Shown here: positions 8,838-29,592 of the stretch, one piece after another
Layout of the letters: each line of letters starts with the position of its first letter
Position numbering within the stretch: the first letter of the stretch is position 1
NCBI GenBank assembly: GCA_030668875.1
Contig: DAOVER010000035.1
Coordinates: forward strand, 1 to 30,512
Length of the DNA: 30,512 bases
DNA from: Candidatus Heimdallarchaeota archaeon
Lineage (GTDB): Archaea; Asgardarchaeota; Heimdallarchaeia; Heimdallarchaeales; Heimdallarchaeaceae
Reading direction: 5' to 3'
Notes under the pieces: generated by a model
The model's input: only the letters and a program-made list of their open reading frames with translations
Database searches by the model: none
Told to the model about the DNA's origin: nothing
Translations under genes and position numbers: made by a program

Positions 8838-9587
8838 TTAATGAAATATCTGAGTTATTGCTTTATCTAATTCCGAATCTTTTGGGCTACCATCAAATGC
8901 TATTACTTTGTTTATACAGACAATTCTGTGGCAATATGCTCTTAGAATTTCTATATTATGTCCTACGGTGATGATGGTGATTTTGTGTGTATAATTGAGA
9001 TACTCTAAAAGTTCCATAATATCCTCTGTCATTCGGAAATCTAAAGCGGAAGTGAATTCATCTAACAATAATACTTCAGCTTCAGCTGCTAATGCTTGCG
9101 CGATGAGGACCCTCTGTTGTTGCCCTCCACTAAGGTGCCCAATGGGTCTTTCAGCAGCATGTTCCATATCTACTAATCGTAAGGCATCCATAGCTTTTTG
9201 TTTGTCAATTTTTCTAATCCTGCTTACTAATCCTGCTTTTGCATATCTTCCCATCTCCACTACATCTTTTACTAGTGCTGGGAAATTTTTGTCTATAGTA
9301 GTAATTTGTGGGACATATCCTATTCGAAACCTAGTATGAACTGGAACAGTATCAATTATCTCTTCCCCATACAGTGTCATTCTTCCTGCAATTGGTTGAA
9401 TCAAACCTATCATTGTTTTTAGTAGTGTTGTTTTTCCACTTCCGTTTGGACCACAAATTCCAATAAAATCTCCTTTTTTTACATCTAAGTTTATCTCATA
9501 TAAAGCAGCAAAGTCACCATAAACGACACTTATATCCTTCATACAAGCAACTATATCGCTATCAGGTGATATATCATCGACCGTCAC
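8838..9587 (-). CDS. Zn/Mn ABC transporter ATP-binding subunit (ZnuC/MntA-like)
   Basis: Walker A GPNGSGKT, IGYVPQ, LSGGQQQRV, LLLDE and H-loop VGHN. It overlaps the permease stop by 4 nt. Confidence 0.93.
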   Translation of the reverse strand: MTVDDISPDSDIVACMKDISVVYGDFAALYEINLDVKKGDFIGICGPNGSGKTTLLKTMIGLIQPIAGRMTLYGEEIIDTVPVHTRFRIGYVPQITTIDKNFPALVKDVVEMGRYAKAGLVSRIRKIDKQKAMDALRLVDMEHAAERPIGHLSGGQQQRVLIAQALAAEAEVLLLDEFTSALDFRMTEDIMELLEYLNYTHKITIITVGHNIEILRAYCHRIVCINKVIAFDGSPKDSELDKAITQIFH

Positions 9588-10606
9588 TCTTCACCCTCCA
9601 TTTCATGTTTGTGTTTAGAAGGAGTACTTTTTTCCTTCAAATCTTTCTTATAAATAATCAACTCTCCCTCACTATGCTTGTGTGGAATTTCTCTGGCTAT
9701 ACAGCTTTCCTCTAAACAGAATTTTCTACCATCGATGGATTTCGCGCAATATTCACAATTCTCAATATCCTGTCCTGTTCCAGATTTCCTTCTCTTCGGA
9801 GACACAATAAATGATAAAGCAAAAATTAATGTTGCAACTCCAACAATAGTTGATCCAGAAGGTAGATCCCAGATAAATGAGAAAAATAATCCTAGAAAAG
9901 CTGAAATTACACCAAATAGTGCTGACAACAAAAGCATTTTGTTTAGCTTAAATGTCCATTGATAAGCTGCTGCAGCAGGTGTAATTATCATTGCAAAAAC
10001 TAAAATTGCTCCTATTGCTTTCAATGAAACATCAATTGTAATTGCTATAAGTATTAGAAAGAGATAATTAATAAATCTTATTGGAATACCTGCTACTGAA
10101 GCCATTTCTTCATTAAATGTTATCAAGTATAATTCCTTCTTTAGAGCAATAATGATGACTAAAACCCCTACAGCCATACTAATAAGTAAAATGAAATTTT
10201 CCCAAGAAATGAGGAGAATATCTCCAAATAATATTGAAGTTACGTCTGTTGAGTAAAATGGCATTAATCCTATGAAGAGTATAGCTAGAGCCATGAAACT
10301 GGTAAATACTACTCCAATAATTACTTCATCTTTCATAACCTTCTTCTCATTAACATAACCAATACCTACAGAAGCAGTGACTCCAAAAATCATAACTGTA
10401 ATAAGTGGGTCTATACCTAAGAGTATCCCCAATGCAGCTCCGGCAAAAGCTGAATGGGCTATTGCTTCACCAAGAAAAACCATGCCTTTTAACAGAACAA
10501 AAACCCCGACAATCCCCCCTAAAACTCCAATGATTACAGCTGTAAACAAAGCTTTAATCATTAACGGTGTTGCTAAAGAGTATATGAAATCAAGAATCGA
10601 TGCCAT
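9584..10606 (-). CDS. Zn/Mn ABC transporter permease (ZnuB/MntB-like) with a Cys/His-rich C-terminal tail
   Basis: GEAIAHSAFAG, ILFGDIL, GAILVFAMIITPAAAA and PSGSTIV motifs. The tail reads CEYC...CLEESC...HKH...HKH. Confidence 0.92.
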   Translation of the reverse strand: MASILDFIYSLATPLMIKALFTAVIIGVLGGIVGVFVLLKGMVFLGEAIAHSAFAGAALGILLGIDPLITVMIFGVTASVGIGYVNEKKVMKDEVIIGVVFTSFMALAILFIGLMPFYSTDVTSILFGDILLISWENFILLISMAVGVLVIIIALKKELYLITFNEEMASVAGIPIRFINYLFLILIAITIDVSLKAIGAILVFAMIITPAAAAYQWTFKLNKMLLLSALFGVISAFLGLFFSFIWDLPSGSTIVGVATLIFALSFIVSPKRRKSGTGQDIENCEYCAKSIDGRKFCLEESCIAREIPHKHSEGELIIYKKDLKEKSTPSKHKHEMEGEE

Positions 10607-10686
10607 GTACTAGAAGAGTTAAGTGAAATATAAAATGATTTTGGGTATGTACAAAAATTAATATAAAGAAGAATCAGTTTTTTTAC

Positions 10687-11757
10687 TTGATGTGTTCTAA
10701 AACGCAGAAAATAGTTGTTCTCATTTTTGCTATGTTTCTCTTTCTATCACCATATTCAGTTATGGCTAGTACGTCTTATAAGCCAGTTATAGTTTCTAAC
10801 ATAAATGAAACTAGTGGAGTAATTAGCGTTGTGACGACATTATCAATAATAGCCGATTGGGCTACTCAAGTGGGTGATACACTGTTCACTCCAGCTTCTG
10901 TTGTTACAGGTTCTGAGGATCCTCATACTTATTCCTTGACTTCAAGTGAGATTCAGATGATAGGTGAAGCAGATTTGTTTGTAAGACTGGGTTTACCTGG
11001 AATTGAACCTTGGGTTGAGAATATTTTAGACGCATTTCCTTCTCTGAATGTTCTTACACTAGCCTCAGAGGAGATGATGGAAATTGATCCTGTTTCAGGA
11101 TATCTAAATGCACATGTGTGGATGAGTCCTATAATTGCTAAAAACTTTGTTTCAAACATAACAGATAGTATTATACAACTGGACATTGCAAATAGAGAAC
11201 AATATGAAACAAACAGAGACAATTATCTATCTGATTTAGATGAGTTGATATTTGATATCGAAGATTATTATTTCAATAAGACCAACGGCTTAAAGGTAGT
11301 CGTACAACATCCTTCATTTTTCTACTTGTTAAATTTGCTTGGTGTTGAAAGAGTAGGAATAATTGAAGAGCATGAAGGTTCAGAACCTTCAGCACAACAC
11401 ATTCAAGAAATTATTAACATTATGATAGAACAAAATGTGTCCACTATTATCACCCAACCACAAATTGAGGAACAATTAGTTATACAGATTGCTAGAGATA
11501 CAAATTCTAAAATTGCTATATTAACACCAATGTTGCTCGATGATGAAGATGCCAATTATATCCAAATGATAATAGATGATATTAACGCGCTGTTGTCCCC
11601 AGAAGATATCGAAGACAATCAATGGATTGTAGCATCTTTAGCTATCGGTGGTGGATTTTTTGTGGGTAGTATTCTACTGCTTGTCTATCTACGTTTTAAG
11701 GGGAATATTTTCAAATTCAAGAAAGAAAAAATTAAACCAAAAACCAATAGGGAATGA
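10687..11757 (+). CDS. Zn/Mn ABC transporter substrate-binding protein (ZnuA/TroA-like) with a C-terminal TM anchor
   Basis: Signal peptide, metal-ligand motifs DPHTY, NAHVW, QHPSF and EPS, and a hydrophobic C-terminal helix followed by basic residues. Divergent from the permease/ATPase pair. Confidence 0.9.
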   Translation: MMCSKTQKIVVLIFAMFLFLSPYSVMASTSYKPVIVSNINETSGVISVVTTLSIIADWATQVGDTLFTPASVVTGSEDPHTYSLTSSEIQMIGEADLFVRLGLPGIEPWVENILDAFPSLNVLTLASEEMMEIDPVSGYLNAHVWMSPIIAKNFVSNITDSIIQLDIANREQYETNRDNYLSDLDELIFDIEDYYFNKTNGLKVVVQHPSFFYLLNLLGVERVGIIEEHEGSEPSAQHIQEIINIMIEQNVSTIITQPQIEEQLVIQIARDTNSKIAILTPMLLDDEDANYIQMIIDDINALLSPEDIEDNQWIVASLAIGGGFFVGSILLLVYLRFKGNIFKFKKEKIKPKTNRE

Positions 11758-15328: not shown

Positions 15329-15500
15329 TGTTAATCACTTGTAATTTTATTTTCGTTTGTCGCTAAACAAACAATTGTTGATACTCTCTTAAACTTTACT
15401 TAATTTGTAAAAGAAGTGTTGATTGTTAAATATTTCTCAACAAAACAGCTTAAACTTTATATTACTCGGTTTTGTTTATTTCTTACAAATAGCTGGTTGT

Positions 15501-18401
15501 ATGTTCATGGGAAAAAAAACCAAGCAAACAGATTTTTTAACTCAAGAATACTTATGTCCTCATCATCTTTCTACAGATAAAATAAGCGAGGAACTCAATA
15601 CCGATATTAGATTCGGATTACATGATGAAGAAGCAACTAAACGATTAAAACAATATGGTCCTAATATAATTCCTAAAATCAAAGGATCAATTTGGGAGAT
15701 ATATCTAGCTCCATTATTCAATTGGTTAATCAATATTTACTTGATCGTTTCTTCTATTTTAATATTCATGTCACTATTTGTTGAAGGCGTTATTGGGCAA
15801 ATTAGCTTTTGGTTGATAATAATTGTTTTCAATATTGGTTTTACAATTTTTCAACAAATAAGAGCTCAATTCAAATTGGATGCATTACACAAGTTAGCTG
15901 CTCCGAGATCTACCGTAATACGAGATGGTGTCCCTCGACAAATAGTTGCTGTAGATTTGGTACCTGGTGATTTAATCGAATTAGATCAAGGAGATAGGGT
16001 TCCTGCCGATTCAAGAATAATCTATTCAAGTAATTGTCTAGTAAATGAAAGCGCATTAACAGGAGAATCGGTAGCTGTTGAAAAGATTCACAATCCAAAA
16101 AATATTCTTCAAGAAGATACTCCCATATCGCTTAGAACTAATATGCTCTATACTGGTACATTTCTTGAAGTAGGTAGAGCAAATGCTATAGTAGTAAACA
16201 CAGGCATCTTTACAGAAATAGGAAAATTATCAACAGAATTACAGAAGATAGGAACGACAGATATCCCGATTCGAGCAAAAGTAAACAGATTAGCTAAATG
16301 GTTGGGATTAACTGTTCTAGCTTATCTAGTAATCTCAATAGTATACAAAACAATCTATTTTTGCACTATTGGAGGAGATACACCACTAGAGAATCAGATC
16401 GTAGATTCTATAACAACTTCAATGGCAATTATGCCAATTAGTATCCCATTATTGACGACTTTGATATTACTTACTGGAGTATTATCGATGGCAAAAGACA
16501 GAGTAATAATTCGGAATCTTTCTGCGGTAGAAACATTGGGTAGAAGTTCTGTTCTATGTACCGATAAAACAGGAACTATAACCACTAATATGATGACAAT
16601 CCAAAGGATTTGGGATACAAGTCAATTCTATGGTGTATCAGGAATAGGATATAGCAACAAAGGTGCAATAGTTCCTTTTGGTGATGAACCAGAAAATTTC
16701 TCTGAAGATATGTATATACCTGACACGATTAAACCTTTTGCAGAAGATTCAAAATTAGAGTATTTGCTTGTCGGAGGAATGTTAAATAACAATGCTCATT
16801 TGATAGTAGAAGAAGTTTTTGAACCTCATCATCAAATTTCATGGAAAACTACAGGGGATCCAACAGATGGGGCATTTTTAGCTTTATTCAATAAATCAGG
16901 ATTAAATGAGAAGGAAACAAAGAAACAATATGGATACATTATGGAATACAATTTCGATTCAACATTGAAACGTATGAGTAAAACATATCAAGATAAGGAA
17001 GGATATTCACTTTTTTGTAAAGGTGCAACAGAGACAATTTTACCTTTATGTAATAGGATTGGTAGTCCATCGGAATATAAGGAATTAACAAAAGAAGATA
17101 CAAAGAAAATAGATGAATATGTTAGTGAATTTGCATCAAAAGGTTACAGAGTAATCTCTTTAGCAATAAGACCAATGGATAAAGATACACTATTGAGCCA
17201 TGATAGAAAAGAATCAGAACAAGAATTAATCTACAATGGTTTTGTTTGTATGTTAGATCCAGCTCGTTATGGTGTTGGTGATGCAGTTAATATGTGTTAC
17301 AAGGCTGGTGTTACTCCAATAATGATTACTGGTGATAGCCCTCTAACTGCAAGAGCAATTGCCAAGGAAGTAGGAATCGTTCAAAAAGATGAATTAGTAG
17401 TAGAGGGGAATAACATAGAGAAACTTTCAGAAATGGATTTCTTCAATACAAGGATATTTGCTAGAGTTTCCCCTCAACACAAACAAGTGATTATAGAGAA
17501 ATACCAAGATAAGAACAAGATCATTTCTATGTGCGGAGATGGTGTAAATGATTGCTTGGCATTAACAATGGCTGATGTTGGGATTTGTATGGGGATTGCT
17601 GGAACAGAAACCGCTAAACAAGCTTCTGATGTTATTATTGCTGACGATAGCTTTACTAGTACTGTTCTTGGTATTAGAGAAGGAAGAGGGTTGTTTAACC
17701 GTATTAGAATTATGATTTTCTTTTACATTTCTCTAAACATTGCCGAAGCAATTCTATATTTCACAAGCTCATTTATTCCTGACTTTGCACTAGTTACCAG
17801 TTTTCAACGAGTTTATATTTTCTCTACTGCTCACTTAGTCCCACCCCTTGCCTTTATTTTTGATAGTATAACTCAGGAAATAATGGATTATCCTCCAAGA
17901 GATGATGAAGACATTTTCAACAGACGATATATAGGCGCTCTTGTAGTACTTGCACTTTCTTTAGCATTTGCTGCAGGATTAGTTTACATGTTAGCTTTAT
18001 ACGGTATTATACCTACTATTCTAAATGGGGCAGCTGAAGCTGGTATTCAAGCAGCTTTTCAACAATCTAAAGCCAGAACTATGTTTATCTCAATAATCGT
18101 TATTTCGGAGAGTTTAGTAGTTCTTATGCTTCGCAGATTAAACAAACCTGTTCATAAATCTATAAGAGAAGATTGGAAATGGGTAGTTATGATACTTATA
18201 ATAATTGTTCCAATTTTACATATTATCATAATGTACTCTAGTTGGCTTCAAGACATCATTCTCATGTTTTTTGATGATCCTTATGTTTTTATGCCACTTG
18301 GAATTACTGATTGGTTGATTGTTATGGGTGCAATAGCTATTCCTCTTACGGCTATAGAGATTTACAAATGTTTCGTTAGAAGGAAGAACAAGTACTTCTA
18401 G
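15501..18401 (+). CDS. P-type ATPase with P2-like architecture and atypical transport site
   Basis: GPN in the N domain, LVPGD, LTGES, phosphorylation motif DKTGT, KGA, MITGD, ARVSP, GDGVND and about 10 TM helices. M4 reads MPISIP. The likely start is ATG 15501 or 15507 rather than TTG 15423. Confidence 0.9.
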   Translation: MFMGKKTKQTDFLTQEYLCPHHLSTDKISEELNTDIRFGLHDEEATKRLKQYGPNIIPKIKGSIWEIYLAPLFNWLINIYLIVSSILIFMSLFVEGVIGQISFWLIIIVFNIGFTIFQQIRAQFKLDALHKLAAPRSTVIRDGVPRQIVAVDLVPGDLIELDQGDRVPADSRIIYSSNCLVNESALTGESVAVEKIHNPKNILQEDTPISLRTNMLYTGTFLEVGRANAIVVNTGIFTEIGKLSTELQKIGTTDIPIRAKVNRLAKWLGLTVLAYLVISIVYKTIYFCTIGGDTPLENQIVDSITTSMAIMPISIPLLTTLILLTGVLSMAKDRVIIRNLSAVETLGRSSVLCTDKTGTITTNMMTIQRIWDTSQFYGVSGIGYSNKGAIVPFGDEPENFSEDMYIPDTIKPFAEDSKLEYLLVGGMLNNNAHLIVEEVFEPHHQISWKTTGDPTDGAFLALFNKSGLNEKETKKQYGYIMEYNFDSTLKRMSKTYQDKEGYSLFCKGATETILPLCNRIGSPSEYKELTKEDTKKIDEYVSEFASKGYRVISLAIRPMDKDTLLSHDRKESEQELIYNGFVCMLDPARYGVGDAVNMCYKAGVTPIMITGDSPLTARAIAKEVGIVQKDELVVEGNNIEKLSEMDFFNTRIFARVSPQHKQVIIEKYQDKNKIISMCGDGVNDCLALTMADVGICMGIAGTETAKQASDVIIADDSFTSTVLGIREGRGLFNRIRIMIFFYISLNIAEAILYFTSSFIPDFALVTSFQRVYIFSTAHLVPPLAFIFDSITQEIMDYPPRDDEDIFNRRYIGALVVLALSLAFAAGLVYMLALYGIIPTILNGAAEAGIQAAFQQSKARTMFISIIVISESLVVLMLRRLNKPVHKSIREDWKWVVMILIIIVPILHIIIMYSSWLQDIILMFFDDPYVFMPLGITDWLIVMGAIAIPLTAIEIYKCFVRRKNKYF

Positions 18402-18493: not shown

Positions 18494-20599
18494 ATGAATC
18501 TCAAGGACCAACGACGAATTATTGATCATCCCATACTCACAGAGCAAGAGTATAAACTAGTTAATTTCAAATTTGAAGGTAAAAAATATCAAGCAAAAGA
18601 AAATGAGATGCTTTCTTCTGCTTTGATAGCAAATGGTATACAAATCTTTGGTTTTCATGCTAAAGACAATGCCCCCCAAGGGATTTTCTGTGCCAATGGA
18701 CAATGTGCTCAATGTACTGTCCTTGTTAACGGTGTTCCAGTAAAATCTTGTATGACACCAACAAAAGAAGGGATGATTGTTGAGCAAGTTCAAGGAATAC
18801 CCTCTTTACCTGAGGATGATTCTGAATTACAATCTGGTAAAATACCTATTTATGAGACCGATGTATTAATCATTGGTGGTGGTCCAGCAGGGTTACAAGC
18901 TGCTTTGACCTTAGCTCAATATAAAACTAATATTATTCTTATTGATGACAAAGATCACTTGGGTGGAAAACTCTTACTTCAAACTCACAAATTCTTTGGT
19001 TCAGTTGAAGATTCTTATGCAGGAACCAGAGGTAATGATATTGCGAAAAAACTGGAGAAAGAAGTTGAAGAATACAAGAATATTGACGTGTGGCTATCAA
19101 GCCCTGCAATTGCTGTTTATAATGATAAGTTAGTAGGTGTCCTTAAGGAAGAAGAGTATGTTCTTGTTAAACCAAGAAAATTGCTAATAGCTACTGGGGC
19201 AAGAGAAAAAATGCTATCATTTCCAGGAAACACACTTCCAGGGGTATATGGCGCCGGTGCCTTCCAAACGTTAGTTAATAGAGATTTGGTAAAATCGAGT
19301 GAAAAAATTTTCCTAATAGGGGGCGGAAATGTAGGGTTGATTACAGGCTATCATGCTATCCAAGCAGGTATTGAAGTAGTTGGTTTAGTGGAAGCTCTAC
19401 CTGAATGTGGTGGATATAAAGTTCACGAAGATAAACTGAGACGGTTAGGAGTACCTATTTACACTCGTCACACAATCTTAGCAGCTCATGGTAAAAATCA
19501 TGTGGATTCAATTACTATCGCACAGATAGACGAAAATTTTAAACCTATACAAGGAACAGAGAAAATATTTGCTGTAGATACAGTTTTGATAGCAATTGGG
19601 TTGGATCCTGTTAATGAATTCCACCTTAAAGCTCAAGAATTCGAGATGGATGTATGGGCTGCAGGTGATGCCTTAGAAATAGCTGAGGCTTCTTCAGCAA
19701 TGTTTAATGGTAAAATAGCTGGAATGGAGATAGCAATCAATTTAGGTTTAGTAGAAGAAGAAATACCGGTGGAGTGGAAAGAGAAATCTAGAATACTTAA
19801 GAGTCATCCTGGTCCAGTCATTGAGAGAAAATGTCAAATTGAAAAAGTAGGTGTGCATCCAATTATTCATTGTAATCAAGAAATACCGTGTAATCCTTGT
19901 ACAACGGTTTGTAGTGAAGGATTAATAAATATTAAAGGAGGAGGTTTGCTGGGTTTACCGCAGTATGAAGGGTGTGAAAATCTTGTTACATATACCTCAT
20001 CTTGTATTGGGTGTGGTCAATGTGTGGCAGTATGTCCGGGTCTAGCAATTACTTTAGTAGATTATAGAAAAAGTGAGAATACTCCTAGAGTAACACTCCC
20101 TGCTGAAATTTACAATAAGAAAATAGAGAAAGGTGAAATATTAACTGTTGTTGATGAGGATGGGAATGAATTAGGCGATTTTGAAGTTTATGGATCACGA
20201 ATTTTAGCTCGCCATCCAAAAACACAATTGGTCACTTTCGAGCTTCCTGCAGATATCGCTACAAAAGCAATATCTTTCAAAGTTCAGAAAACTATAGAAA
20301 AAGCAATTGAAGAGCAATATGAAGAAATCATTCCTGATGAAGCTATTATCTGTAGATGTGAAAGAGTTACTGCTGGAGAAATACGATCTTACATCCATAA
20401 AGGAATCAAAGATATGAATGAGTTGAAGTCAATTACAAAGGTTGGAATGGGAGCATGTGGAGGAAAAACTTGTACTAAATTGATTGAACGAATATTCAGA
20501 GAAGAAGGAGTACCTCAAGAAGAAGTAACAACATTTGTGCAACGACCACTATTTGTTGAAGTACCTCTCAAATATTTCTTAGGAACTAAGGAGGAATGA
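18494..20599 (+). CDS. Fused Fe-S flavoprotein (2Fe-2S, FAD/NAD(P)-binding, 2x4Fe-4S and BFD-like domains), similar to the alpha and ferredoxin subunits of proline/sarcosine dehydrogenase complexes
   Basis: GIFCANGQCAQC...SC (2Fe-2S), GGGPAG, ATGARE, GGGNVG, CNPCTTVC and CIGCGQCVAVCP (4Fe-4S), and CRCE...GMGACGGKTC (BFD-like). Confidence 0.88.
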   Translation: MNLKDQRRIIDHPILTEQEYKLVNFKFEGKKYQAKENEMLSSALIANGIQIFGFHAKDNAPQGIFCANGQCAQCTVLVNGVPVKSCMTPTKEGMIVEQVQGIPSLPEDDSELQSGKIPIYETDVLIIGGGPAGLQAALTLAQYKTNIILIDDKDHLGGKLLLQTHKFFGSVEDSYAGTRGNDIAKKLEKEVEEYKNIDVWLSSPAIAVYNDKLVGVLKEEEYVLVKPRKLLIATGAREKMLSFPGNTLPGVYGAGAFQTLVNRDLVKSSEKIFLIGGGNVGLITGYHAIQAGIEVVGLVEALPECGGYKVHEDKLRRLGVPIYTRHTILAAHGKNHVDSITIAQIDENFKPIQGTEKIFAVDTVLIAIGLDPVNEFHLKAQEFEMDVWAAGDALEIAEASSAMFNGKIAGMEIAINLGLVEEEIPVEWKEKSRILKSHPGPVIERKCQIEKVGVHPIIHCNQEIPCNPCTTVCSEGLINIKGGGLLGLPQYEGCENLVTYTSSCIGCGQCVAVCPGLAITLVDYRKSENTPRVTLPAEIYNKKIEKGEILTVVDEDGNELGDFEVYGSRILARHPKTQLVTFELPADIATKAISFKVQKTIEKAIEEQYEEIIPDEAIICRCERVTAGEIRSYIHKGIKDMNELKSITKVGMGACGGKTCTKLIERIFREEGVPQEEVTTFVQRPLFVEVPLKYFLGTKEE

Positions 20600-21756
20600 A
20601 GATGAGTTACAAATTCGATGCGATTATCATTGGTGCTGGAAGTGTAGGTGTTCCTTCAGCCTTAGCTTTAGCAAGAGATGGAATTAAAACGCTTGTTATT
20701 GATAATACTCCATCAGCTGGTCAAGGGCAGAATAAGAAAGCAATAGGTGGGATACGCGCAACTCATACAGCTCCTGCAAAAATTCATCTTTGCCTTGATT
20801 CAATTAAGATTTTCTCAACATGGGAAGAGAAATATGGTGACGATATTGAATGGTTTCAAGGAGGATATACCTTCATTGCATACAATGAAGAACATGAACA
20901 GTTTATGCAAGATAATCTGGTAATTCAGAAAAAAGCTGGTTTGGAAATTGATTGGGTGGACAAGGAAAGAATCCAAGACTTAGTTCCAGGTATTGTTGCT
21001 AGAGATTTAAGAGGAGGAACCCTTTCCTCTAAAGATGGTAATGCTTCACCGCTAAAATCTATCTATGCTTTTTACCGTCAATCAGTTGTGGAAGGAGCAG
21101 AATATCGTTTTAAAGAAAAAGTTACTTCCATTATAACAGAGAGCGGCTTTGCAAAGGGAGTTAAAACTGACAAAGGAGTTTATGAAGCTGATACAGTTAT
21201 CAATATTGCAGGAGCAGGAGCAAAAGCTGTTGGCAAGATGGTGGGAATAGATTTGCCTGTTTATCCAGATTCCCATGAATCAGGTATTAGTGAGCCAGTG
21301 AAAAAGTTTATTGATCCTTTAGTTGTTGATTTACGACCCGGCACTGGAACCAATAACTTCTATTTCTATCAGAACCAAGAAGGAAAGTTCATTTTATGCT
21401 TAACACCCGAACCAATTATCCCCGGTACAAATGAAATGGAAACATCTGCTTTTCTACCTCAAGTAGCTGAAAGAATTGTACAGCTAATTCCTAGAACAAA
21501 ACATCTGAAAATGAGAAGAACGTGGAGAGGATTATATCCAATGTCTCCAGATGGTTCTCCGATTGTTGGTAAAATCAAGGAATTAGAAGGATATATCAAC
21601 GCAGTTGGAATGTGCGGACAAGGATATATGCTAGGACCTGGGTTAGGTGAATTGATCAGCCGATTAGTTCAAGATAAACTAACTGAAAAAGATGAACGAA
21701 CTTTGAAAGAAATGTCAATGTATCGAGATTTCGGAAAGGTAGAAAAACTCAGATGA
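20596..21756 (+). CDS. FAD-dependent oxidoreductase, DAO family (sarcosine oxidase beta / dye-linked proline dehydrogenase catalytic-subunit-like)
   Basis: IIGAGSVG, AIGGIRA, RTWRGLYPMSPDGSPIVG and GMCGQGYMLGPG. It overlaps the upstream gene by 4 nt (ATGA). Confidence 0.9.
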   Translation: MKMSYKFDAIIIGAGSVGVPSALALARDGIKTLVIDNTPSAGQGQNKKAIGGIRATHTAPAKIHLCLDSIKIFSTWEEKYGDDIEWFQGGYTFIAYNEEHEQFMQDNLVIQKKAGLEIDWVDKERIQDLVPGIVARDLRGGTLSSKDGNASPLKSIYAFYRQSVVEGAEYRFKEKVTSIITESGFAKGVKTDKGVYEADTVINIAGAGAKAVGKMVGIDLPVYPDSHESGISEPVKKFIDPLVVDLRPGTGTNNFYFYQNQEGKFILCLTPEPIIPGTNEMETSAFLPQVAERIVQLIPRTKHLKMRRTWRGLYPMSPDGSPIVGKIKELEGYINAVGMCGQGYMLGPGLGELISRLVQDKLTEKDERTLKEMSMYRDFGKVEKLR

Positions 21757-21857: not shown

Positions 21858-22589
21858 TTGCTAATGGATTCAAGTAACAAAAAGAAACTACTCATTTGTC
21901 GAGAAACTGACATTATTTGTACGGGTGGAGTGGTGTTCATTGGCGATGGAGCAGTTGGAAAGACTCATACAGCTTTGAATTTGGCTAGTTATAGGAAAGG
22001 ATCATTCCATACTGTTGATTGTGCTAACTTATCCAAATCCGTTAATTTGGAATTCGATTATTTCATCCTATATTCAAATATTGAAAAATATAAAGTAACT
22101 ATAAGCTCACAATTATTCATTATGCCTGGACAGAAAGGGAAAGCTGAAGTAGGCGAAGGACTAGCCTTTGAAGATGCTGTTGATATGTATTTCAACGTAA
22201 GAAGCATCAATGATGTAATAGCTTTAATCTTAACTTACAGTTTAGCTGAAATTAAAACCTTCCAGAATCTGGAATATTGGCTAAACAGAGCAATTGATCA
22301 TGAACTAATATCAGATTATACAAATGTCATCTTGCTTGGAACACATCTTGATTATGTTATTTCTTCAGATGTAACTGATAAGATGATTAGTGATGGAGAA
22401 GAGTTTGTAAGACAGAGAATAAATGATAAACTAGGCATAGAAATGAGTACAAATCGAATAAGTTCAGTGAAAATTTCTAATTTAAATAGAACAGGAATTG
22501 ATGAACTACAAGATAGAGTGTCCAATGCCTTCTTCAGAGCATTTGAGATAGAAAAAGTTGTAAATAATAGCTTAAGTCAGAATAATTGA
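21858..22589 (+). CDS. Divergent Ras-superfamily (Rab/Rho-like) small GTPase
   Basis: G1 VVFIGDGAVGKT (nt 21942 onward), switch I SVNLEF, G3-like FIMPGQ, LTYSL...TFQNLEYWL, G4-like LGTHLD and G5-like ISNLNRTGIDEL. Start is TTG 21858 or ATG 21861. Confidence 0.8.
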   Translation: MLMDSSNKKKLLICRETDIICTGGVVFIGDGAVGKTHTALNLASYRKGSFHTVDCANLSKSVNLEFDYFILYSNIEKYKVTISSQLFIMPGQKGKAEVGEGLAFEDAVDMYFNVRSINDVIALILTYSLAEIKTFQNLEYWLNRAIDHELISDYTNVILLGTHLDYVISSDVTDKMISDGEEFVRQRINDKLGIEMSTNRISSVKISNLNRTGIDELQDRVSNAFFRAFEIEKVVNNSLSQNN

Positions 22590-22726: not shown

Positions 22727-25700
22727 ATGTATAAAAATAAATCAAAACTATTTTCAATTTTTATTGTTACATTATTCATCAGTTCACTAATCTATTTTGA
22801 ACCTTCATTAAATGACGAAAAATTAACCGATACAGTTTTTCCTAATAAACCAATTCTTCCAGACACTGATAATGAAACAGATGAAAATATAAATAACCAA
22901 GATGATAGTGAAAACGCTCCAATAAAGAAGACAGAAGAAATTCCAGGGGACTACGAAACTTTTGCATTTTTCAGTGGTGGAACGGGATATATCTATGGAG
23001 CTCCAAGGGTCGGTGAATCGCTTATATTAGACCCTGCGGATGAAGATCCTCTACATCGTCGTAATGTCATTGAATGGGTATCTTATGATGATATTAAAGA
23101 TGATGGAACATTAGCAAAAGAGCTATATTGGAGAGCATTAAGTGTTGAACCTATAACTTGGCCTAATGATACTAACTGGTTTTATCTACGAGAAAGGGGA
23201 TACCCAAATGAACCATCAAAAATGTATAGTCCAACTTTTACAGAAGAGTTTGAGATAAGTGGAAGAGTACATTTCCTCTCCTATCTTGAGTTAAATAATG
23301 GTGCTACTTTTTCTGAAACAATAGATATTGGTTATAGATTAAGTCTTTATCTTTTTAATCCTGCTGACCCAAACAATCCTACATTAATTACAAGCAATAC
23401 GATCATCGAATCAACATCCTCAATGACTGTTGGGCAAAGGACTTTTTCAGCAGATATAGTTTCCCCTGTAACAATACCTGTAGGGTATAGATTAAGAATG
23501 GATATTGAGGCTAGATTTAGTACAGTACCAGTATCGGGTTCCTTTCTTCAATATACAGGGTGGTATTGGGGAGGTGGTGGAACTAACACTTGGACAATCA
23601 CTGATGGTATTTATTCTAACATTTATACGATTAATAATATTTCTAGGATGGCTGGTCTACAGCTTTACATGCGATCGAAAACATACCCCGAAATACAAAT
23701 ATTCAATGCTGTAAATGAGACTGTTTATTCTTCAGCAAGAGATATAACAATAGATGTAACGGATGGTTCAACGAGTAGCTTCAGATGGAATGGAGATAGT
23801 GTATGGACGCCAATTTACGATAGTATTCTGTCTCCATTACTTACAGAACATGGGTGGAATACTTTAGAAGTGAAAGCAAGTGATCCAATTTACAATAACA
23901 CGATAGTAGAACTTTATCAGTTTGGTTATGATGAATCTCCAGTAAATGTTGTTTTAGATAATGCAATCAATACTTCAATTATTCCCAGAAATTATGATCT
24001 ACAGTTTAGCGTCTATAATATTACTTCTGCAACGTTTGAGTGGGATAATAGTGGTTCTCCGACGTCGTTCATATCACCCTATAATATTACCGCAGAAAAT
24101 TATGAGGGTTTACATAATTTAACGATTATCACAATTGATTTCTACACAACGGAGTCATATTATTACGAGTTCACTTTTGAATCTTTACCACCAACAATCC
24201 TGTTAGACTCACCAGATAACAATACACTACAATCTCCAGGAAAAAATATTTACATACAGGTTAACGATTCATCAGGTATTGATATTGTGACTTATCACTG
24301 GGATGGTGATATAGAAGAGGTAATGACATTTCTAGGTGGACACATATATAGAACAAACTTACCCACCGCAGGAGGTTGGCATCAACTATATGTCACAGCA
24401 AATGATACTTATGGAAATCAAATCTCGTCACATTATACTTTCTTTACAGATCCTACCATACTTAATGTTGAATTAACAAATATGATAGATGATTCATATT
24501 ATATGGGAGGTAATGATGTTAATGTAACAATCACGTCTTCCAATGATACTATAAAATACAAATGGGATAATGGTGTCTGGAAAGATAAATCTGACGCGGA
24601 ATGGGATGGGGCCCTACTTAAACTTAAGGACGCTGAAGGGTTACCTTCAACTCTTGGGGTTCACATTTTGAAAATTCGGACTGGTACTCTTTTACATGTT
24701 GAAGAAACTTTCACTTTTACATTCACAATAGATCAACAAGCACCAGAATATGATTCTTCTGTGTTAGATTATAGTAATTTAAGATATCTGGGGGAGGAAA
24801 CACTAACATTTACTGTTACAGACAATTTTACTCTTTCTGCTGAAATTCTACTAAAAATCTCCATTGATGGAGGTTTTAATCAATCTCTATTCTTTCCGTT
24901 TATTTTACCACTATTTTCTTTCTTTGATGGTAATCATAGTATTGTGATATATGTTTGGGATATTGCTGGAAATGTAAATGTGACTACAATATATGTTATT
25001 GTTGATAACACTGCTCCTGACATAGATTACCTTATCCCAGACTTAGTTAATTATATTCATGTAGACGGTAATAGATATGTAAAGGCTGATGCTCTAGTTG
25101 ATGTCACATTAACAGACGACGACACTATTCTTTTCAGCTATTATTCAATTAATGGAACAGCATTTACTTCATTCGTTTCCGATTTTAATCTAGGGTTTCT
25201 TGAAGGTTATCTTGAAATAACTATACGTGCAAATGATAGCTTAGGCAATATATATGATTTATATTTTTATTTAATTCTTGATAATAGTCCACCAACGTTG
25301 GATCTCATATTTCCATTTAATTACATCTCGGAAATAAATGATTTAACCCCCTTACAGTTCAATACACAAGACCTTTCTGATAAAACTATCAATTCAGTTG
25401 AATATGAATGGGATGTTTTTCCAGGATTCACTGCAAATGCATTTCCTGATATAAATGGTGACTTCGAATTCAAGCTGCTCTCATTTATACAAGATTCTTA
25501 TGTATCAGGTAGTACTGCACAATTGACATTTTATCTTGAAGATATAGTTGGAAATATTGCTATAATTATGTATAATTTCACTGTTGATTATACGGCACCA
25601 ATTGCTGCATTCTATATTTATAATGAAACAGTCGTATACGAAGATATTAGTCTATTTTATTATGTAGAAGGAAATACTTCCATATTTTATAATAATACTG

Positions 25701-27580
25701 AAAATGATGATTTGATAAAACTAGAATATTACTGGGATGGAAATATATCAGAAGGATCAATTGTGACACTTATAAATGGTACAAACCCATTTCCGTGGTT
25801 CATAAATGTACCTCCAATTGACGGTGAACATAATTTAACAGTCAAGCTCTATGATGATGCTGGAGAAAAACTAAGTCAAAATATCAGAACTGAAACATAT
25901 TTCTTAAAAGTTGATGACATCTTGATTAGCCCAATATCTCCATCAGATTTATCAGATGAGTACCATACAACAATCTTGTATAAAGACAGCTTCAATTTCA
26001 GAATAAATGTTACAGATATTTTAGATGGACAACCTCTAGATAATGTTGATATTACCTATAACTATGATTCGACATACAATCTCAGTATTGAAATTGTTCA
26101 GATTGATAGTATAACTTATGATTTTACAATAACAGCATTCAACGTAACTAATGGCTTAGAAACAGCTATTGAATTTTATATATTTCAATTTGCAGACAAA
26201 AAGGAAATGAGAGTTATATATCTTACAGTAGATACTAGAGAAGGGAATTTATTTGTCTTACAAGGAGGATATAATAGTCTCTACTACAATGACATAGTTA
26301 ATTTCACACTGCAACTGAATGATCATTTGAATATCTCTGCTCAAGAAATTCTAAGTATAACAATTAATGGTACAGAAGTACCCTACCTCTATTTTTCAGA
26401 AAATGGAACTGCGAGAATATCCCTCTTTCTACCTGATTTTGTTGATAGTAAAGGGAACTATACCTTTGAAATTTACGCGGAGTCTTCAGAATATTATGAT
26501 ACTTTTATTGATTCATCTGTTATTTTGATAGAAGTGAAACCGATGCTTGTTTTATTAGACGTATGGGTATTAAATTCAACAATTCTAGAAGGTACTTCCG
26601 TAATAATTTATGCTAAATTGACCTTAGAAGATGGCACTCCCATAGTAGGTGCAGAGATTTATTTTATTATATATATTTACCTAAAAACTGATACAGAACT
26701 TCCATCTACAGTTGTTCGGCTATCTTTTGCAGATTATAATGAAAGTGTTACTAACAGTAGCTTCACTGGATCTGATGGTATAGCCCTTTTGTCTTATACA
26801 CTAAACTCCAGTATATCTTCAATCGAGATAGAAGCTAGTTATCTAGGGGATGACATTCGGGATCAAACACAATTTAGATTTGATGGCATAGTAATTACGT
26901 TTCCACCTCCTCAAGCTGAAGAGCTTCCTGTATGGCTCTTAGGTTTGATAATAGGTGGAAGTATTTTAATCGCAGGAATTATCTCATTCATCATATACAA
27001 AGCTACACGACCTAAACCTTTTGAAGAATTAATGAAGAAAATTACTGATGAGGAAATTGTTTTGAATTATTCCATTCTCTCTCCAGGTATTATGTTGTCA
27101 ATATTTGATCAACGTAAAGGTCCGATTCCCTTGGTAACTGATCATTCATTGAGTATTGGTCGATATATAGGAAGGATGCAGATTGGTATAGAAAATTTTC
27201 TACTTAAAATTGCTGATCAAGCTTATTCCAGCTTAGGTTTTGAGGAACATACCGATGAGAGAAGAGTTGGATCAATAGTACTACCTAGTGAGAAAATGGT
27301 CGGTTTCTTACAAGGGTTACAGTTAAAGAATCCTCAAGCTCGAGGAGGTTTTGAGAATCTTTCTCTAATTATTCTTGCTGATCGAGAGTACGGAAACTTA
27401 CTTCTTAACTACCAAGAGTATCTTTATCCAAAAATAGACGAATTGGATGTTGCACTCAAAGGCAAAGATTCGTTGAAGAAAGTAGAAATGTTGATAAAAG
27501 AAATCCGTAAAGAATCTGTTGTAATTATCCTTGCTGCACAAAAAGTTGAAAAAGCTCAAGAGAACGGAAGCAGCTCTTAA
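22727..27580 (+). CDS. 1617-aa single-pass surface protein: signal/anchor, tandem Ig-like domains, TM helix and cytoplasmic longin/uDENN-like domain
   Basis: Hydrophobic N-terminus. Repeating (Y/F)xWD/N, G.H.L.(I/V)...D and D..(A/P)P.I units with many NxS/T sequons. TM helix WLLGLIIGGSILIAGIISFIIY from about nt 26933, followed by a basic residue. The C-terminal domain has SIFDQRKGPIP and QARGGFENLSLIILA. Confidence 0.8.
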   Translation: MYKNKSKLFSIFIVTLFISSLIYFEPSLNDEKLTDTVFPNKPILPDTDNETDENINNQDDSENAPIKKTEEIPGDYETFAFFSGGTGYIYGAPRVGESLILDPADEDPLHRRNVIEWVSYDDIKDDGTLAKELYWRALSVEPITWPNDTNWFYLRERGYPNEPSKMYSPTFTEEFEISGRVHFLSYLELNNGATFSETIDIGYRLSLYLFNPADPNNPTLITSNTIIESTSSMTVGQRTFSADIVSPVTIPVGYRLRMDIEARFSTVPVSGSFLQYTGWYWGGGGTNTWTITDGIYSNIYTINNISRMAGLQLYMRSKTYPEIQIFNAVNETVYSSARDITIDVTDGSTSSFRWNGDSVWTPIYDSILSPLLTEHGWNTLEVKASDPIYNNTIVELYQFGYDESPVNVVLDNAINTSIIPRNYDLQFSVYNITSATFEWDNSGSPTSFISPYNITAENYEGLHNLTIITIDFYTTESYYYEFTFESLPPTILLDSPDNNTLQSPGKNIYIQVNDSSGIDIVTYHWDGDIEEVMTFLGGHIYRTNLPTAGGWHQLYVTANDTYGNQISSHYTFFTDPTILNVELTNMIDDSYYMGGNDVNVTITSSNDTIKYKWDNGVWKDKSDAEWDGALLKLKDAEGLPSTLGVHILKIRTGTLLHVEETFTFTFTIDQQAPEYDSSVLDYSNLRYLGEETLTFTVTDNFTLSAEILLKISIDGGFNQSLFFPFILPLFSFFDGNHSIVIYVWDIAGNVNVTTIYVIVDNTAPDIDYLIPDLVNYIHVDGNRYVKADALVDVTLTDDDTILFSYYSINGTAFTSFVSDFNLGFLEGYLEITIRANDSLGNIYDLYFYLILDNSPPTLDLIFPFNYISEINDLTPLQFNTQDLSDKTINSVEYEWDVFPGFTANAFPDINGDFEFKLLSFIQDSYVSGSTAQLTFYLEDIVGNIAIIMYNFTVDYTAPIAAFYIYNETVVYEDISLFYYVEGNTSIFYNNTENDDLIKLEYYWDGNISEGSIVTLINGTNPFPWFINVPPIDGEHNLTVKLYDDAGEKLSQNIRTETYFLKVDDILISPISPSDLSDEYHTTILYKDSFNFRINVTDILDGQPLDNVDITYNYDSTYNLSIEIVQIDSITYDFTITAFNVTNGLETAIEFYIFQFADKKEMRVIYLTVDTREGNLFVLQGGYNSLYYNDIVNFTLQLNDHLNISAQEILSITINGTEVPYLYFSENGTARISLFLPDFVDSKGNYTFEIYAESSEYYDTFIDSSVILIEVKPMLVLLDVWVLNSTILEGTSVIIYAKLTLEDGTPIVGAEIYFIIYIYLKTDTELPSTVVRLSFADYNESVTNSSFTGSDGIALLSYTLNSSISSIEIEASYLGDDIRDQTQFRFDGIVITFPPPQAEELPVWLLGLIIGGSILIAGIISFIIYKATRPKPFEELMKKITDEEIVLNYSILSPGIMLSIFDQRKGPIPLVTDHSLSIGRYIGRMQIGIENFLLKIADQAYSSLGFEEHTDERRVGSIVLPSEKMVGFLQGLQLKNPQARGGFENLSLIILADREYGNLLLNYQEYLYPKIDELDVALKGKDSLKKVEMLIKEIRKESVVIILAAQKVEKAQENGSSS
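23690..25920 (+). repeat. Protein-level tandem Ig-like (Big-type) repeats in the ectodomain
   Basis: Recurring strands FRWNG, FEWDN, YHWDG, YKWDN, YEWDV and YYWDG paired with GWNTLEV, GLHNLTI, GWHQLYV, GVHILKI, GNHSIVI and GEHNLTV. Boundaries are approximate. Confidence 0.65.
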
Positions 27581-27678: not shown

Positions 27679-29592
27679 ATGTCATACTTGTTCGATGAAA
27701 TTTACGGTAAAAACGAAGAAGCTCCTGCAATAGAAGATAAGATTCTACTTATGGGTCTCCAAGCTGCAGGGAAAACTGCAATAAAGGATGTGGTTTTCTT
27801 TAACAAATCTCCAGAAGATATGGAAGATTATATGGCAACAGTTCACTATCAACGTCATTTCATTGACGAAGAAAAAAAAAGTATGGTTATTGATTCCGGT
27901 GGGCAAGAGAGTTATTGGAACGAAGCTGTAACGCATTTTCGACATCTTGTATTCTCAAATGTCAAATTGCTCGTCTGGATTGTTGATGTTACTCATCCTG
28001 AGATGTTTGAAGAATCGGAAAGACGATTCAGTTTTACAATTCGACAATATAAAAAAGAAAACCCCAATGGAAGAATAACTGTATTGTGCCACAAAGTCGA
28101 TCTTGTACAACCAGAGAGAATGGTTGTTATTCATCAACACATACGTGAGTCATTTAATGATCCAAAATATGAAATCGATTTTGAAAATACCAGCATCTAT
28201 TACAGAGAAAGTTTAAAGGAATTAATTTTTACGATTATGGCTGAAGCTGGAATAGATACTAAACGATTTGAGCTAATTTCCAACTTAGGTCAGAAAGTGG
28301 AGGAAAGTGATGAGTTCCAAAGCTATCTCATGGAACATCAAGAAGACCCAAGAATTGAACAACTTCTAGATTTTCTCAAACCTGATGCTGAAATTACTTT
28401 ACCCACTTTTGGTAACTTGGATTTACAATTCGACTTAACAGATTATGGTATTATAGAAATTGTTCTTATTGATAAGGATACATTTTCTCCTATAATAGGT
28501 GCTTCATCCAAAACAGATGTTACAACACAAAATTCAATGGATTATCTTATTGCACTTCACGACTTCAAACGTTATGTGAAGGAAAAAAGTCAAGAAATTG
28601 ACCCCACAGGTACTATTGTTAAATCTGCTGATGAGAAAGTTCATGGAATGGTTTTCAACCTTGCAAAAAATTTCTTGCTTGTAACTTCTTTCTCTGAAAT
28701 AACAAAAGAAAGGAAGAAGATGTTTTTTGATCTTATACTCAAGTTTGCAAAAGCAACTACTGATTCTGATGAAGCTGCTAAACCTGAACCAGTCCCTGTT
28801 CCTTTAGTACCTCAAGTTCCATCAGTTCCCGTTACCACAGAAACAGTTACTACTGAACCTGAATCATTCCCTGAAATTGTTGATGAACCAATAGTTATCG
28901 TTGAAGAAACAGTGGAAGCTCCTCAAATAGAGATAATGAAAACATCGTTAGTTGTAGAAGAAACAGATATCGTTGAACCCGAAATCATATTGCCACCTTC
29001 ACCTGCTTCAGTTGAACTTGTTACAGAGGAACAAAAAGAAGAGATTGAACAAGTTACACCAGAACCAATCGAAATAGAGCATGTAGAAGAACTTACTGAG
29101 CTACCAGAAACCCATGTAGAATCAAAACCCATAATTGTTGAAGAAACTCCAGAAGTTTTAGCTAAGTCAGCACCTCAAGTACCTGTCCCAACTGTTCCAG
29201 AGTCCACTGCTGTGCCAGACGTTCCAGATACCAAAGTAACAGAAGTACCTCCAGAACAACAAATCGTACCCGAATTTGTTGAGAAGATGGTTATAGAGTC
29301 AATCCCTGAACAAACCGAACAAATTGAAACAGCTGTTGAAGACAAGATTGAACATATTCCCGATACAACTGAACCTATTGCCACATTAAATGGTATAGGA
29401 GATTCAAGTGCAATAAATTTCAGTGCAGATGATATCTCAAGTTTTGCTAACTTCTTAGTTCAGAAGAAAGAAACAATACTTGAAGGCATATCATCAGATG
29501 ACATTAAAGGTATGTCTAACTTTCTTACAAAAGGATCAACTGCAGAAGTAGAAGAAATAAATGAAGAAAGAGAAGAACAAACTACAGAGTAG
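27679..29592 (+). CDS. Rag/Gtr1-like GTPase with a roadblock-like C-terminal domain and a long acidic Pro/Glu/Val/Thr-rich tail
   Basis: KILLMGLQAAGKTAIKDVVF (cf. Gtr1 KVLLMG.SGSGKSS..SIIF), ATV, DSGGQE, WIVDV, HKVDLV and TSIY. EIVLIDKDTFSPII resembles RagA EVLLFERATFLVI. Confidence 0.85.
   Translation: MSYLFDEIYGKNEEAPAIEDKILLMGLQAAGKTAIKDVVFFNKSPEDMEDYMATVHYQRHFIDEEKKSMVIDSGGQESYWNEAVTHFRHLVFSNVKLLVWIVDVTHPEMFEESERRFSFTIRQYKKENPNGRITVLCHKVDLVQPERMVVIHQHIRESFNDPKYEIDFENTSIYYRESLKELIFTIMAEAGIDTKRFELISNLGQKVEESDEFQSYLMEHQEDPRIEQLLDFLKPDAEITLPTFGNLDLQFDLTDYGIIEIVLIDKDTFSPIIGASSKTDVTTQNSMDYLIALHDFKRYVKEKSQEIDPTGTIVKSADEKVHGMVFNLAKNFLLVTSFSEITKERKKMFFDLILKFAKATTDSDEAAKPEPVPVPLVPQVPSVPVTTETVTTEPESFPEIVDEPIVIVEETVEAPQIEIMKTSLVVEETDIVEPEIILPPSPASVELVTEEQKEEIEQVTPEPIEIEHVEELTELPETHVESKPIIVEETPEVLAKSAPQVPVPTVPESTAVPDVPDTKVTEVPPEQQIVPEFVEKMVIESIPEQTEQIETAVEDKIEHIPDTTEPIATLNGIGDSSAINFSADDISSFANFLVQKKETILEGISSDDIKGMSNFLTKGSTAEVEEINEEREEQTTE
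28760..29400 (+). repeat. Low-complexity P/E/V/T-rich coding segment
   Basis: About 210 aa dominated by E, P, V, T and I (PEPVPVP, VPQVPSVP, VPTVPES, VPDVPD), with almost no aromatic residues. Confidence 0.8.

Follow-up and report, generated by a model that had tools for sequence, protein, structure and literature searches.

A P2-lineage P-type ATPase with a rebuilt ion-binding site from a mostly Asgard-archaeal clade

The P-type ATPase encoded at 15501-18401 on the forward strand of a 30,512 nucleotide stretch of DNA from a Candidatus Heimdallarchaeota archaeon (assembly GCA_030668875.1, contig DAOVER010000035.1, positions 1 to 30,512; hereafter 'the window') is a pump of the P2 lineage with the ten-helix P2 fold, and belongs to an old, mostly Asgard-archaeal clade. 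Relative to the Ca2+ pump SERCA, site II has been erased and a site-I-like pocket, formed by N772, E775, H804 and E896, retained. Through this rebuilt single site on the P2 fold, the pump probably carries a small inorganic cation other than Ca2+. The original prediction, made from the sequence of the window, had described an active pump with a 'flippase-type' PISI motif in its fourth membrane helix (M4), altered ion-binding residues and a non-canonical substrate, possibly a lipid or an organic cation.

The pump and its motifs

The coding sequence was identified from the list of open reading frames, its translation and full-length homologues. The open reading frame (15423-18401, forward strand) comprises 992 codons counted from a TTG at 15423, which is the origin of all residue numbers used here. 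The true start is likely to be the ATG at 15501 or that at 15507, giving a protein of 966 or 964 amino acids, because homologues of 964-966 amino acids cover residues 27-992 fully. Five P2-type pump domains are recognised by Pfam (Cation_ATPase_N, E1-E2_ATPase, Cation_ATPase, Hydrolase and Cation_ATPase_C), and the score with the generic P-type model TIGR01494, 242 bits, exceeds its cut-off (62 bits).

The features that define the P-type superfamily are present throughout. Direct translation and homologue alignments place the TGES dephosphorylation motif of the A-domain at residues 213-216 (16059-16070), the DKTGT phosphorylation motif at residues 381-385 (16563-16577) and the GDGVND hinge motif of the P-domain, an instance of GDGxND, at residues 705-710 (17535-17552), all on the forward strand; these are joined by a TGD motif and an unwound M4 with a conserved proline. 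TGES is found in each of the 119 listed homologues that span the A-domain motif, with a further two being fragments lacking the region. The catalytic motifs are therefore intact, as had been predicted, and going by their presence and conservation the pump looks catalytically active.

The membrane helices also read as originally described. M4 translates as MAIMPISIP (16422-16448), with its unwound segment M-P-I-S-I-P at residues 337-342 (16431-16448), as supported by translation, alignments and a structural model, and with P338-I339-S340-I341 at 16434-16445. M5 contains SLNIAEA (17730-17750), including N772 and E775, identified by translation and alignment to SERCA2. The altered M6 region, YIFSTAHLVPPLA (17814-17852), includes STAHLVPP (17823-17846), in which translation, alignment and the model agree in placing H804 at 17832-17834. 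M8 harbours VISESL (18099-18116), with E896 at 18108-18110, located through the SERCA2 alignment and the columns conserved across the clade.

The rebuilt ion site

Residue equivalences were taken from HMMER alignments to solved pumps (LMCA1 and SERCA2). I339 pairs with the Glu in the M4 segment 'aaipeal' of LMCA1, the position of SERCA E309, and F800, A803 and H804 align with the Asn, Thr and Asp of SERCA2 'wvnlvtdglp' (N796, T799 and D800), such that all four of the Ca2+ ligands originally listed as lost have been replaced. The claim that M5 keeps its Asn and Glu is likewise upheld, as N772 and E775 align with the corresponding pair of SERCA2 'ssnvgev' (SERCA N768 and E771); similarly, E896 aligns with the Glu of 'vtiemc' in M8 (SERCA E908). 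H933 aligns with a His that is present in SERCA too, and so is not special. Hence the residues specific to SERCA site II are hydrophobic in this pump (E309 to I339, N796 to F800), and four site-I positions are kept as N772, E775, E896 and H804, the last replacing Asp800.

Few of these columns vary among 142 members of the clade: I339 is found in 94%, N772 in 96-100%, E775 in 100%, Q795 in about 100% and H804 in 99-100%. E896 is present in 100% of the Heimdallarchaeal subclade that includes the pump and in 78% of clade members outside it. Where 100% of the relatives with a canonical PEGLP motif have the PEGL Glu, 94% of the clade has Ile, and at three M2 positions (columns 126, 145 and 149) the clade has Gln where an acidic residue is found in 93-100% of those relatives. 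Overall, five conserved negative charges have been lost from the membrane domain and one imidazole gained. Glu775 and His804 stand out as an invariant pair, with N772, the Asn usual in M4 of the clade and Glu896 nearly invariant but replaceable. As these replacements of Ca2+ ligands are conserved across the family, the substrate is probably non-canonical, in agreement with the original prediction.

An AlphaFold2 model built from an alignment of 70 family members (mean predicted local distance difference test score 87.4, predicted template modelling score 0.83) breaks the M4 helix at M337-I339 and unwinds M6 over residues 802-808. Aromatic residues conserved across the clade are found in M1, M2, M5 and M6 (Y94, W101, Y106, W130, Y768, Y779, Y798 and F800).

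Distribution and phylogeny of the clade

Motif conservation was observed in 120 close and about 40 remote homologues. The 120 closest database proteins, which come from Heimdall-, Hod-, Thor-, Odin- and Promethearchaeota and from the bacterium Dehalogenimonas etheniformans, all read MPI[N/S/T/A/M]IPLLTT in M4; remote members of the clade include Hel-, Kor- and Promethearchaeota. The check proposed with the original prediction, on the conservation of PISI and the M6 His, thus returned MPI[N/S/T/A/M]IP in 120 of 120 close homologues and H804 in 99-100%; the case that it had named against itself, in which PISI would be a private mutation amongst close homologues with PEGL, did not materialise. 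Furthermore, PISI and the M6 motif are identical in sequence in the contigs covering both from four runs of one marine-sediment study. Since every close homologue keeps the motifs and these contigs agree, the motif set is the product of neither chance nor sequencing error. Representatives of 1.8 billion proteins divide at a score of about 480 bits: above it they carry P-x-N-x-P/V, bar fragments without M4, and below it they are nearly all PEGLP pumps.

The phylogeny, which covers 100 sequences and takes the P1B pumps of the same genome as its root, was constructed using one quick search under a single model, LG+G4. A generic P-type pattern scan of genomes returned almost only PEGLP pumps, which were used as named controls in the tree and not for assessing distribution. 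The clade comprises at least 45 sampled lineages, with a Shimodaira-Hasegawa-like approximate likelihood ratio test (SH-aLRT) support of 99, and is characterised by P-x-N-x-P/V in M4, N..E in M5, an invariant His in M6 and a Glu in M8. Even its most divergent branches, with PFNFP, PWNFP or PINLV, still carry the M4 Asn and the M5, M6 and M8 residues. All PEGLP sequences form a separate clade, also with an SH-aLRT of 99, which takes in a methanogen sequence with a PEGLL motif that we liken to the M4 of Na,K-ATPases. The pump itself has the M5, M6 and M8 features and the tree placement of a clade member, with the M4 Asn replaced by Ser340.

It falls within a Heimdallarchaeal subclade in which Ser, Ala or Met stands for Asn. 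At this position the subclade has Ser in 82%, Thr in 7% and Ala in 7%; elsewhere in the clade, Asn is found in 97%. Because the subclade is nested among PINIP sequences, PINIP is evidently the ancestral and dominant motif of the clade, and Ser340, and with it PISI, a derived Heimdallarchaeal state. A second, independent change from Asn to Ser is found near the Dehalogenimonas branch. The same Heimdallarchaeal subclade has gained hydroxyl groups around the pocket, in the form of TTS (331-333) before M4, T141 in M2 and S801 and T802 in M6, and has fixed R796; these changes may represent compensation or a shift in specificity.

A clade-level match is present in about 200 of the 300 sampled genomes of the phylum (best E value ≤ 1e-170). 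Tandem paralogues lie side by side in several Asgard lineages (loci L096, L100 and L112-L115), all keeping the M6 His; the pair in one lineage group (f14) combines a PINIP pump with a PINLP pump.

Placement among P-type ATPases

When ranked by NCBIfam subfamily models, the pump scores best against IIA2 (417 bits), followed by IID, IIA1, IIB, IIC, IIIB, IIIA, V and IV (93 bits); that is, PMR1-type Ca2+ pumps, then fungal Na/K, SERCA, PMCA, Na,K, MgtA, H+ and P5 pumps, with P4 lipid pumps near the bottom. Every curated subfamily score is below its cut-off, and only the generic P-type model is exceeded. For instance, the P2A equivalog models TIGR01522 and TIGR01116 give 417 bits (cut-off 798) and 381 bits (cut-off 703), respectively, with PEGLP controls attaining 683-823 and 670-732 bits. 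The ranking is almost identical for clade members and PEGLP controls, but the clade lies about 300 bits lower on P2A, at 415-500 bits versus the 683-823 of the PEGLP pumps. The P3A model TIGR01647 gives 289 bits against a cut-off of 615, with a His in place of the M6 Asp that acts as proton acceptor, and P1B models give 121-175 bits.

Structural comparisons are similar. The closest solved proteins are LMCA1 (PDB search, E value 3e-108), SPCA1 and SERCA, and the top 50 Foldseek matches are P2 pumps throughout (query-normalised TM-score, TMq, up to 0.77), in E2 and E2P states. In an exhaustive structural comparison (VIA), the highest Z scores are to PfATP4 (33.6), LMCA1 (31.5), MgtA (30.7) and AHA2 (29.8); P2 and P3 structures range from 33.6 to 28.3, P4 from 28.1 to 25 and P5B from 26.7 to 24.8, with P1 and the P5A pump Spf1 below 22.5. 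ESM Atlas returned generic P-type clusters only.

With the P2A pumps (LMCA1, SPCA1/PMR1 and SERCA), the pump shares its domain order, ten-helix fold and TGES, DKTGT and GDGVND motifs, as well as the M5 Asn and Glu, the M8 Glu and the matching places at which M4 and M6 are unwound. By contrast, it has Ile for the M4 Glu, Phe for the M6 Asn, His for the M6 Asp and Gln at three acidic M2 positions, scores far under the equivalog cut-offs and falls in a clade separate from all PEGLP pumps, including the Na,K-like methanogen sequence. Another prokaryotic P2-like pump with a replaced M6 Asp is CtpE of Mycobacterium, which typifies P6, a family set apart by that replacement and by phylogeny (PMC10654040). 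In CtpE, however, PEGL is intact and Ile takes the place of the Asp, whereas the present clade has lost the PEGL Glu, with PISI in this pump, and has His in M6.

The clade is therefore best placed as a diverged branch of the P2 stem that is not particularly close to either P4 or P5, since the P4 and P5 models score no better on it than on the PEGLP controls. This placement relative to P3, P4, P5 and P6 is based on hidden Markov model scores and fold ranks rather than on the tree. No description or name for the clade was found in literature searched on its motifs, functionally uncharacterised P-type ATPases (FUPA) and Asgard pumps.

Cargo and mechanism

In the proposed mechanism, the pump would follow a normal E1/E2 phosphoenzyme (Post-Albers) cycle, moving one small inorganic cation other than Ca2+ per turn. 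The cargo would be held in a single, charge-reduced pocket beneath the unwound M4, with the Glu775-His804 pair as its core, and His804 would either coordinate the ion through its nitrogen or, as an internal counter-charge, drive the ion out in E2P. More specifically, the clade may tentatively be regarded as a new subfamily, near-universal in Asgard archaea, in which a Glu-His site would handle a cargo not known for P2 and P3 pumps, be it a transition metal or a proton moved via an acid-base pair of inverted polarity; a further change of specificity may have taken place in the Heimdallarchaeal PISIP branch.

The cargo is most likely either a transition metal or H+ or another monovalent cation, although each of the two, taken separately, is less likely than not. 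One candidate is a divalent transition metal (Mn, Fe, Co, Ni or Zn). A set of N and O ligands that includes His is the classical setting of these metals, and the P1B-4 pumps, with their SPC/HEGxT site, provide a precedent for His in a P-type site, as they employ a His-Glu pair as ligands for Co2+, Zn2+ or Fe2+. Unlike this pump, they have the eight-helix P1B architecture, with the His-Glu pair in the last helix, and P1B structures match the query with Z scores below 22. H+ or another monovalent cation is an equally likely candidate. The hydrophobic M4 position, lowered charge and single acid-base pair are just as reminiscent of the P3A proton pumps AHA2 and Pma1, in which Ile or Val replaces the PEGL Glu in a frame of the P-x-x-x-P type (PMC4937031), and a lone acid-base pair in the membrane core could form a proton site, the His then acting as built-in counter-charge; AHA2 is also structurally close (Z score 29.8). 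The polarity of the pair is inverted, however: the P3A acid (Asp) is in M6 and the base (Arg) in M5 (PMC10654040), whereas in this pump M5 supplies the acid and M6 the base (His).

A number of observations weigh against a rebuilt cation site of this kind. No substrate-specific evidence was found, no gene beside the pump is conserved among 39 loci spanning 14 lineage groups, and an N-terminal metal-binding domain is absent. The M4 Asn cannot be an essential ligand, because Ser, Thr, Ala or Met replaces it in the Heimdallarchaeal subclade, and E896 gives way to Ile in 19% of the clade outside that subclade. The pocket geometry is read from the alignment alone. To our knowledge, His seldom coordinates Na+, K+, Ca2+ or Mg2+, yet it is also unprecedented in P2 and P3 sites, making the analogies weak.

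The best placed of the alternatives, although unlikely, is an ordinary hard-cation pump for Ca2+, Mg2+, Na+ or K+, which would use the site-I residues and M4 carbonyls, with His804 only tuning affinity. N772, E775 and E896 do correspond to SERCA N768, E771 and E908, the fold and the best sequence models are those of Ca2+ and Na+ pumps, and public annotations label members of the clade as Ca2+-transporting ATPases, but these annotations are automatic. Five acidic positions have been lost, and the genome already encodes a canonical PEGLP pump. Additionally, we know of no characterised single-site Ca2+ pump that uses site I alone, with LMCA1, SPCA and PMCA all keeping site II. The M6 Asp, for its part, is omnipresent in Ca2+ efflux pumps (PMC10654040).

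Transport of an organic cation or other small non-metal solute, such as a polyamine, in an aromatic-lined cavity like that of P5B pumps is improbable. The conserved aromatic residues of M1, M2, M5 and M6 and the reduced negative charge would suit it, but the M4 frame is PxxxP rather than PPALP, the P5 model scores 220-248 bits on the clade versus 243-275 on PEGLP controls, P5B structures rank under those of P2, P3 and P4, and no polyamine genes are found near the pump. Even less plausible is a protein that transports nothing, whether as an ATP-driven sensor or scaffold or as an uncoupled enzyme: the extensive rewriting of the binding site and the want of an obvious substrate would fit it, but both site residues and catalytic motifs are under strong purifying selection across sequences only 35-45% identical, and nearly all of the phylum carries the gene, often in duplicate.

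P4 flippases, such as ATP8A1/2, Drs2p and Neo1p, share with the pump an Ile at the PEGL Glu position, a loss of site-II ligands and the general fold (Z scores 27.6-28.1). The Ile of the P4 PISL motif sits at this position, which Ile or Val also occupies in P3 pumps, AHA2 among them (PMC4937031); in the present pump it occurs as P-I-S-I, the usual motif of the clade being PINI, and M4 retains the second Pro of the P2/P3 frame. P4 flippases are found only in eukaryotes and have a DGET motif, a critical M5 Lys, a CDC50 subunit (P4A) and long regulatory tails (PMC4937031, PMC10654040), none of which was found here, the CDC50 subunit having been looked for among neighbouring genes. TGES occurs throughout the clade, in support of the original argument that this is not a true P4 ATPase; an apparent DGET in two homologues is an incidental VIRDGET upstream of their TGES. 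Position 771, which corresponds to the P4 Lys (ATP8A2 K873), is Leu in the pump and Leu, Val or Ile across the clade. The P4 model TIGR01652 scores 93 bits on the pump against a cut-off of 431, and 88-115 bits on clade members versus 91-103 on ordinary PEGLP pumps. No conserved neighbour that might be a CDC50-type partner was found in the 39 loci, the rest of the genome not having been searched for one. A prokaryotic lipid flippase, convergent with or ancestral to the eukaryotic P4 ATPases, is therefore the least credible of the alternatives: the local PISI motif and the lost cation ligands of site II are outweighed by the ancestral PINIP, the occurrence of Ile or Val in P3 H+ pumps, the TGES, the missing M5 Lys, an invariant Glu-His-Asn set typical of ion sites, a P4 score no better than that of the controls, the ranking of P4 structures under P2 and P3 and the lack of a conserved partner gene in the 39 loci. 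The invariant polar residues (N/E/H/E) suggest that an ion is bound here and argue against a groove for lipids. Thus 'flippase-type' is not an apt description of PISI, and nothing ties the clade to the origin of P4 flippases, on which the pump had been thought potentially informative; of the substrates originally envisaged, the non-canonical character stands, and both lipids and, less decisively, organic cations are disfavoured.

Genomic context

The genome, which is 92% complete, also encodes two heavy-metal pumps of the CPC type and one canonical PEGLP pump whose M6 has NxxTD; given this coexistence, the pump represents an additional function. Across the 39 loci, the most widely shared neighbour occurs in no more than four of the 14 lineage groups, and eight individual contig look-ups revealed no consistent neighbour. 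Nor did Rfam, at E values up to 0.1, detect any riboswitch or other RNA motif, whether in the window or at four homologous loci, among them that of Dehalogenimonas.

In the window, the upstream flank encodes a KaiC-like ATPase and a nucleotidyltransferase on the opposite strand. Further upstream, 3.7 kb from the pump, are ZnuABC-like metal uptake genes (8838-11757), with the ABC ATPase and ABC-3 permease on the reverse strand and the ZnuA binding protein on the forward strand; this arrangement recurs only in close relatives, such as a related Heimdallarchaeal contig (L010), and is absent in other lineages. In a separate case, a clade member with PVSIP, on a metagenomic contig (P0131), lies between the hydrogenase maturation protease HycI and a NiFe-hydrogenase large subunit, adjoining tungsten-type aldehyde:ferredoxin oxidoreductases; this context is a single instance and is not conserved. 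Both the ZnuABC and the NiFe-hydrogenase contexts were set aside as anecdotes, being confined to close relatives and to a single case, respectively.

Directly downstream of the pump is an oxidoreductase pair (18494-21756), in which a 701 amino acid protein with 2Fe-2S, FAD/NAD and 4Fe-4S domains overlaps by four bases with a DAO-family FAD oxidoreductase. The pair is syntenic in L010 and resembles the alpha/beta pair of an opine or sarcosine oxidase. Beyond it, a Ras-like small GTPase (21858-22589) and a 637 amino acid Gtr1/RagA-like GTPase (27679-29592) flank a 1617 amino acid protein (22727-27580), the sole Pfam match of which is one Ig-like domain; these GTPases are eukaryote-like and typical of Asgard genomes.

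Implications

Few transporters are as well understood as the P-type ATPases. A 2023 review of them recognises families P1 to P6 only, and expects further prokaryotic families (PMC10654040). The clade described here is large and old, is found in about two thirds of the sampled genomes of the archaeal phylum closest to eukaryotes and has a binding site that matches no characterised pump; what this window newly contributes is that the PISIP variant is, by its position in the tree, a derived Heimdallarchaeal state. In a study of Asgard transporters, a putative Ca2+ ATPase orthologue present in all five proteomes was read as support for Ca2+ signalling (PMC7997004); this orthologue could be either a member of the present clade or the PEGLP paralogue. 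Establishing the identity of the cargo would correct the automatic 'Ca2+-transporting ATPase' label, public records describing these proteins as Ca2+- or cation-transporting. It would also add a new solution to ion selectivity on the P2 scaffold, and would inform the understanding of ion or metal homeostasis in Asgard archaea.

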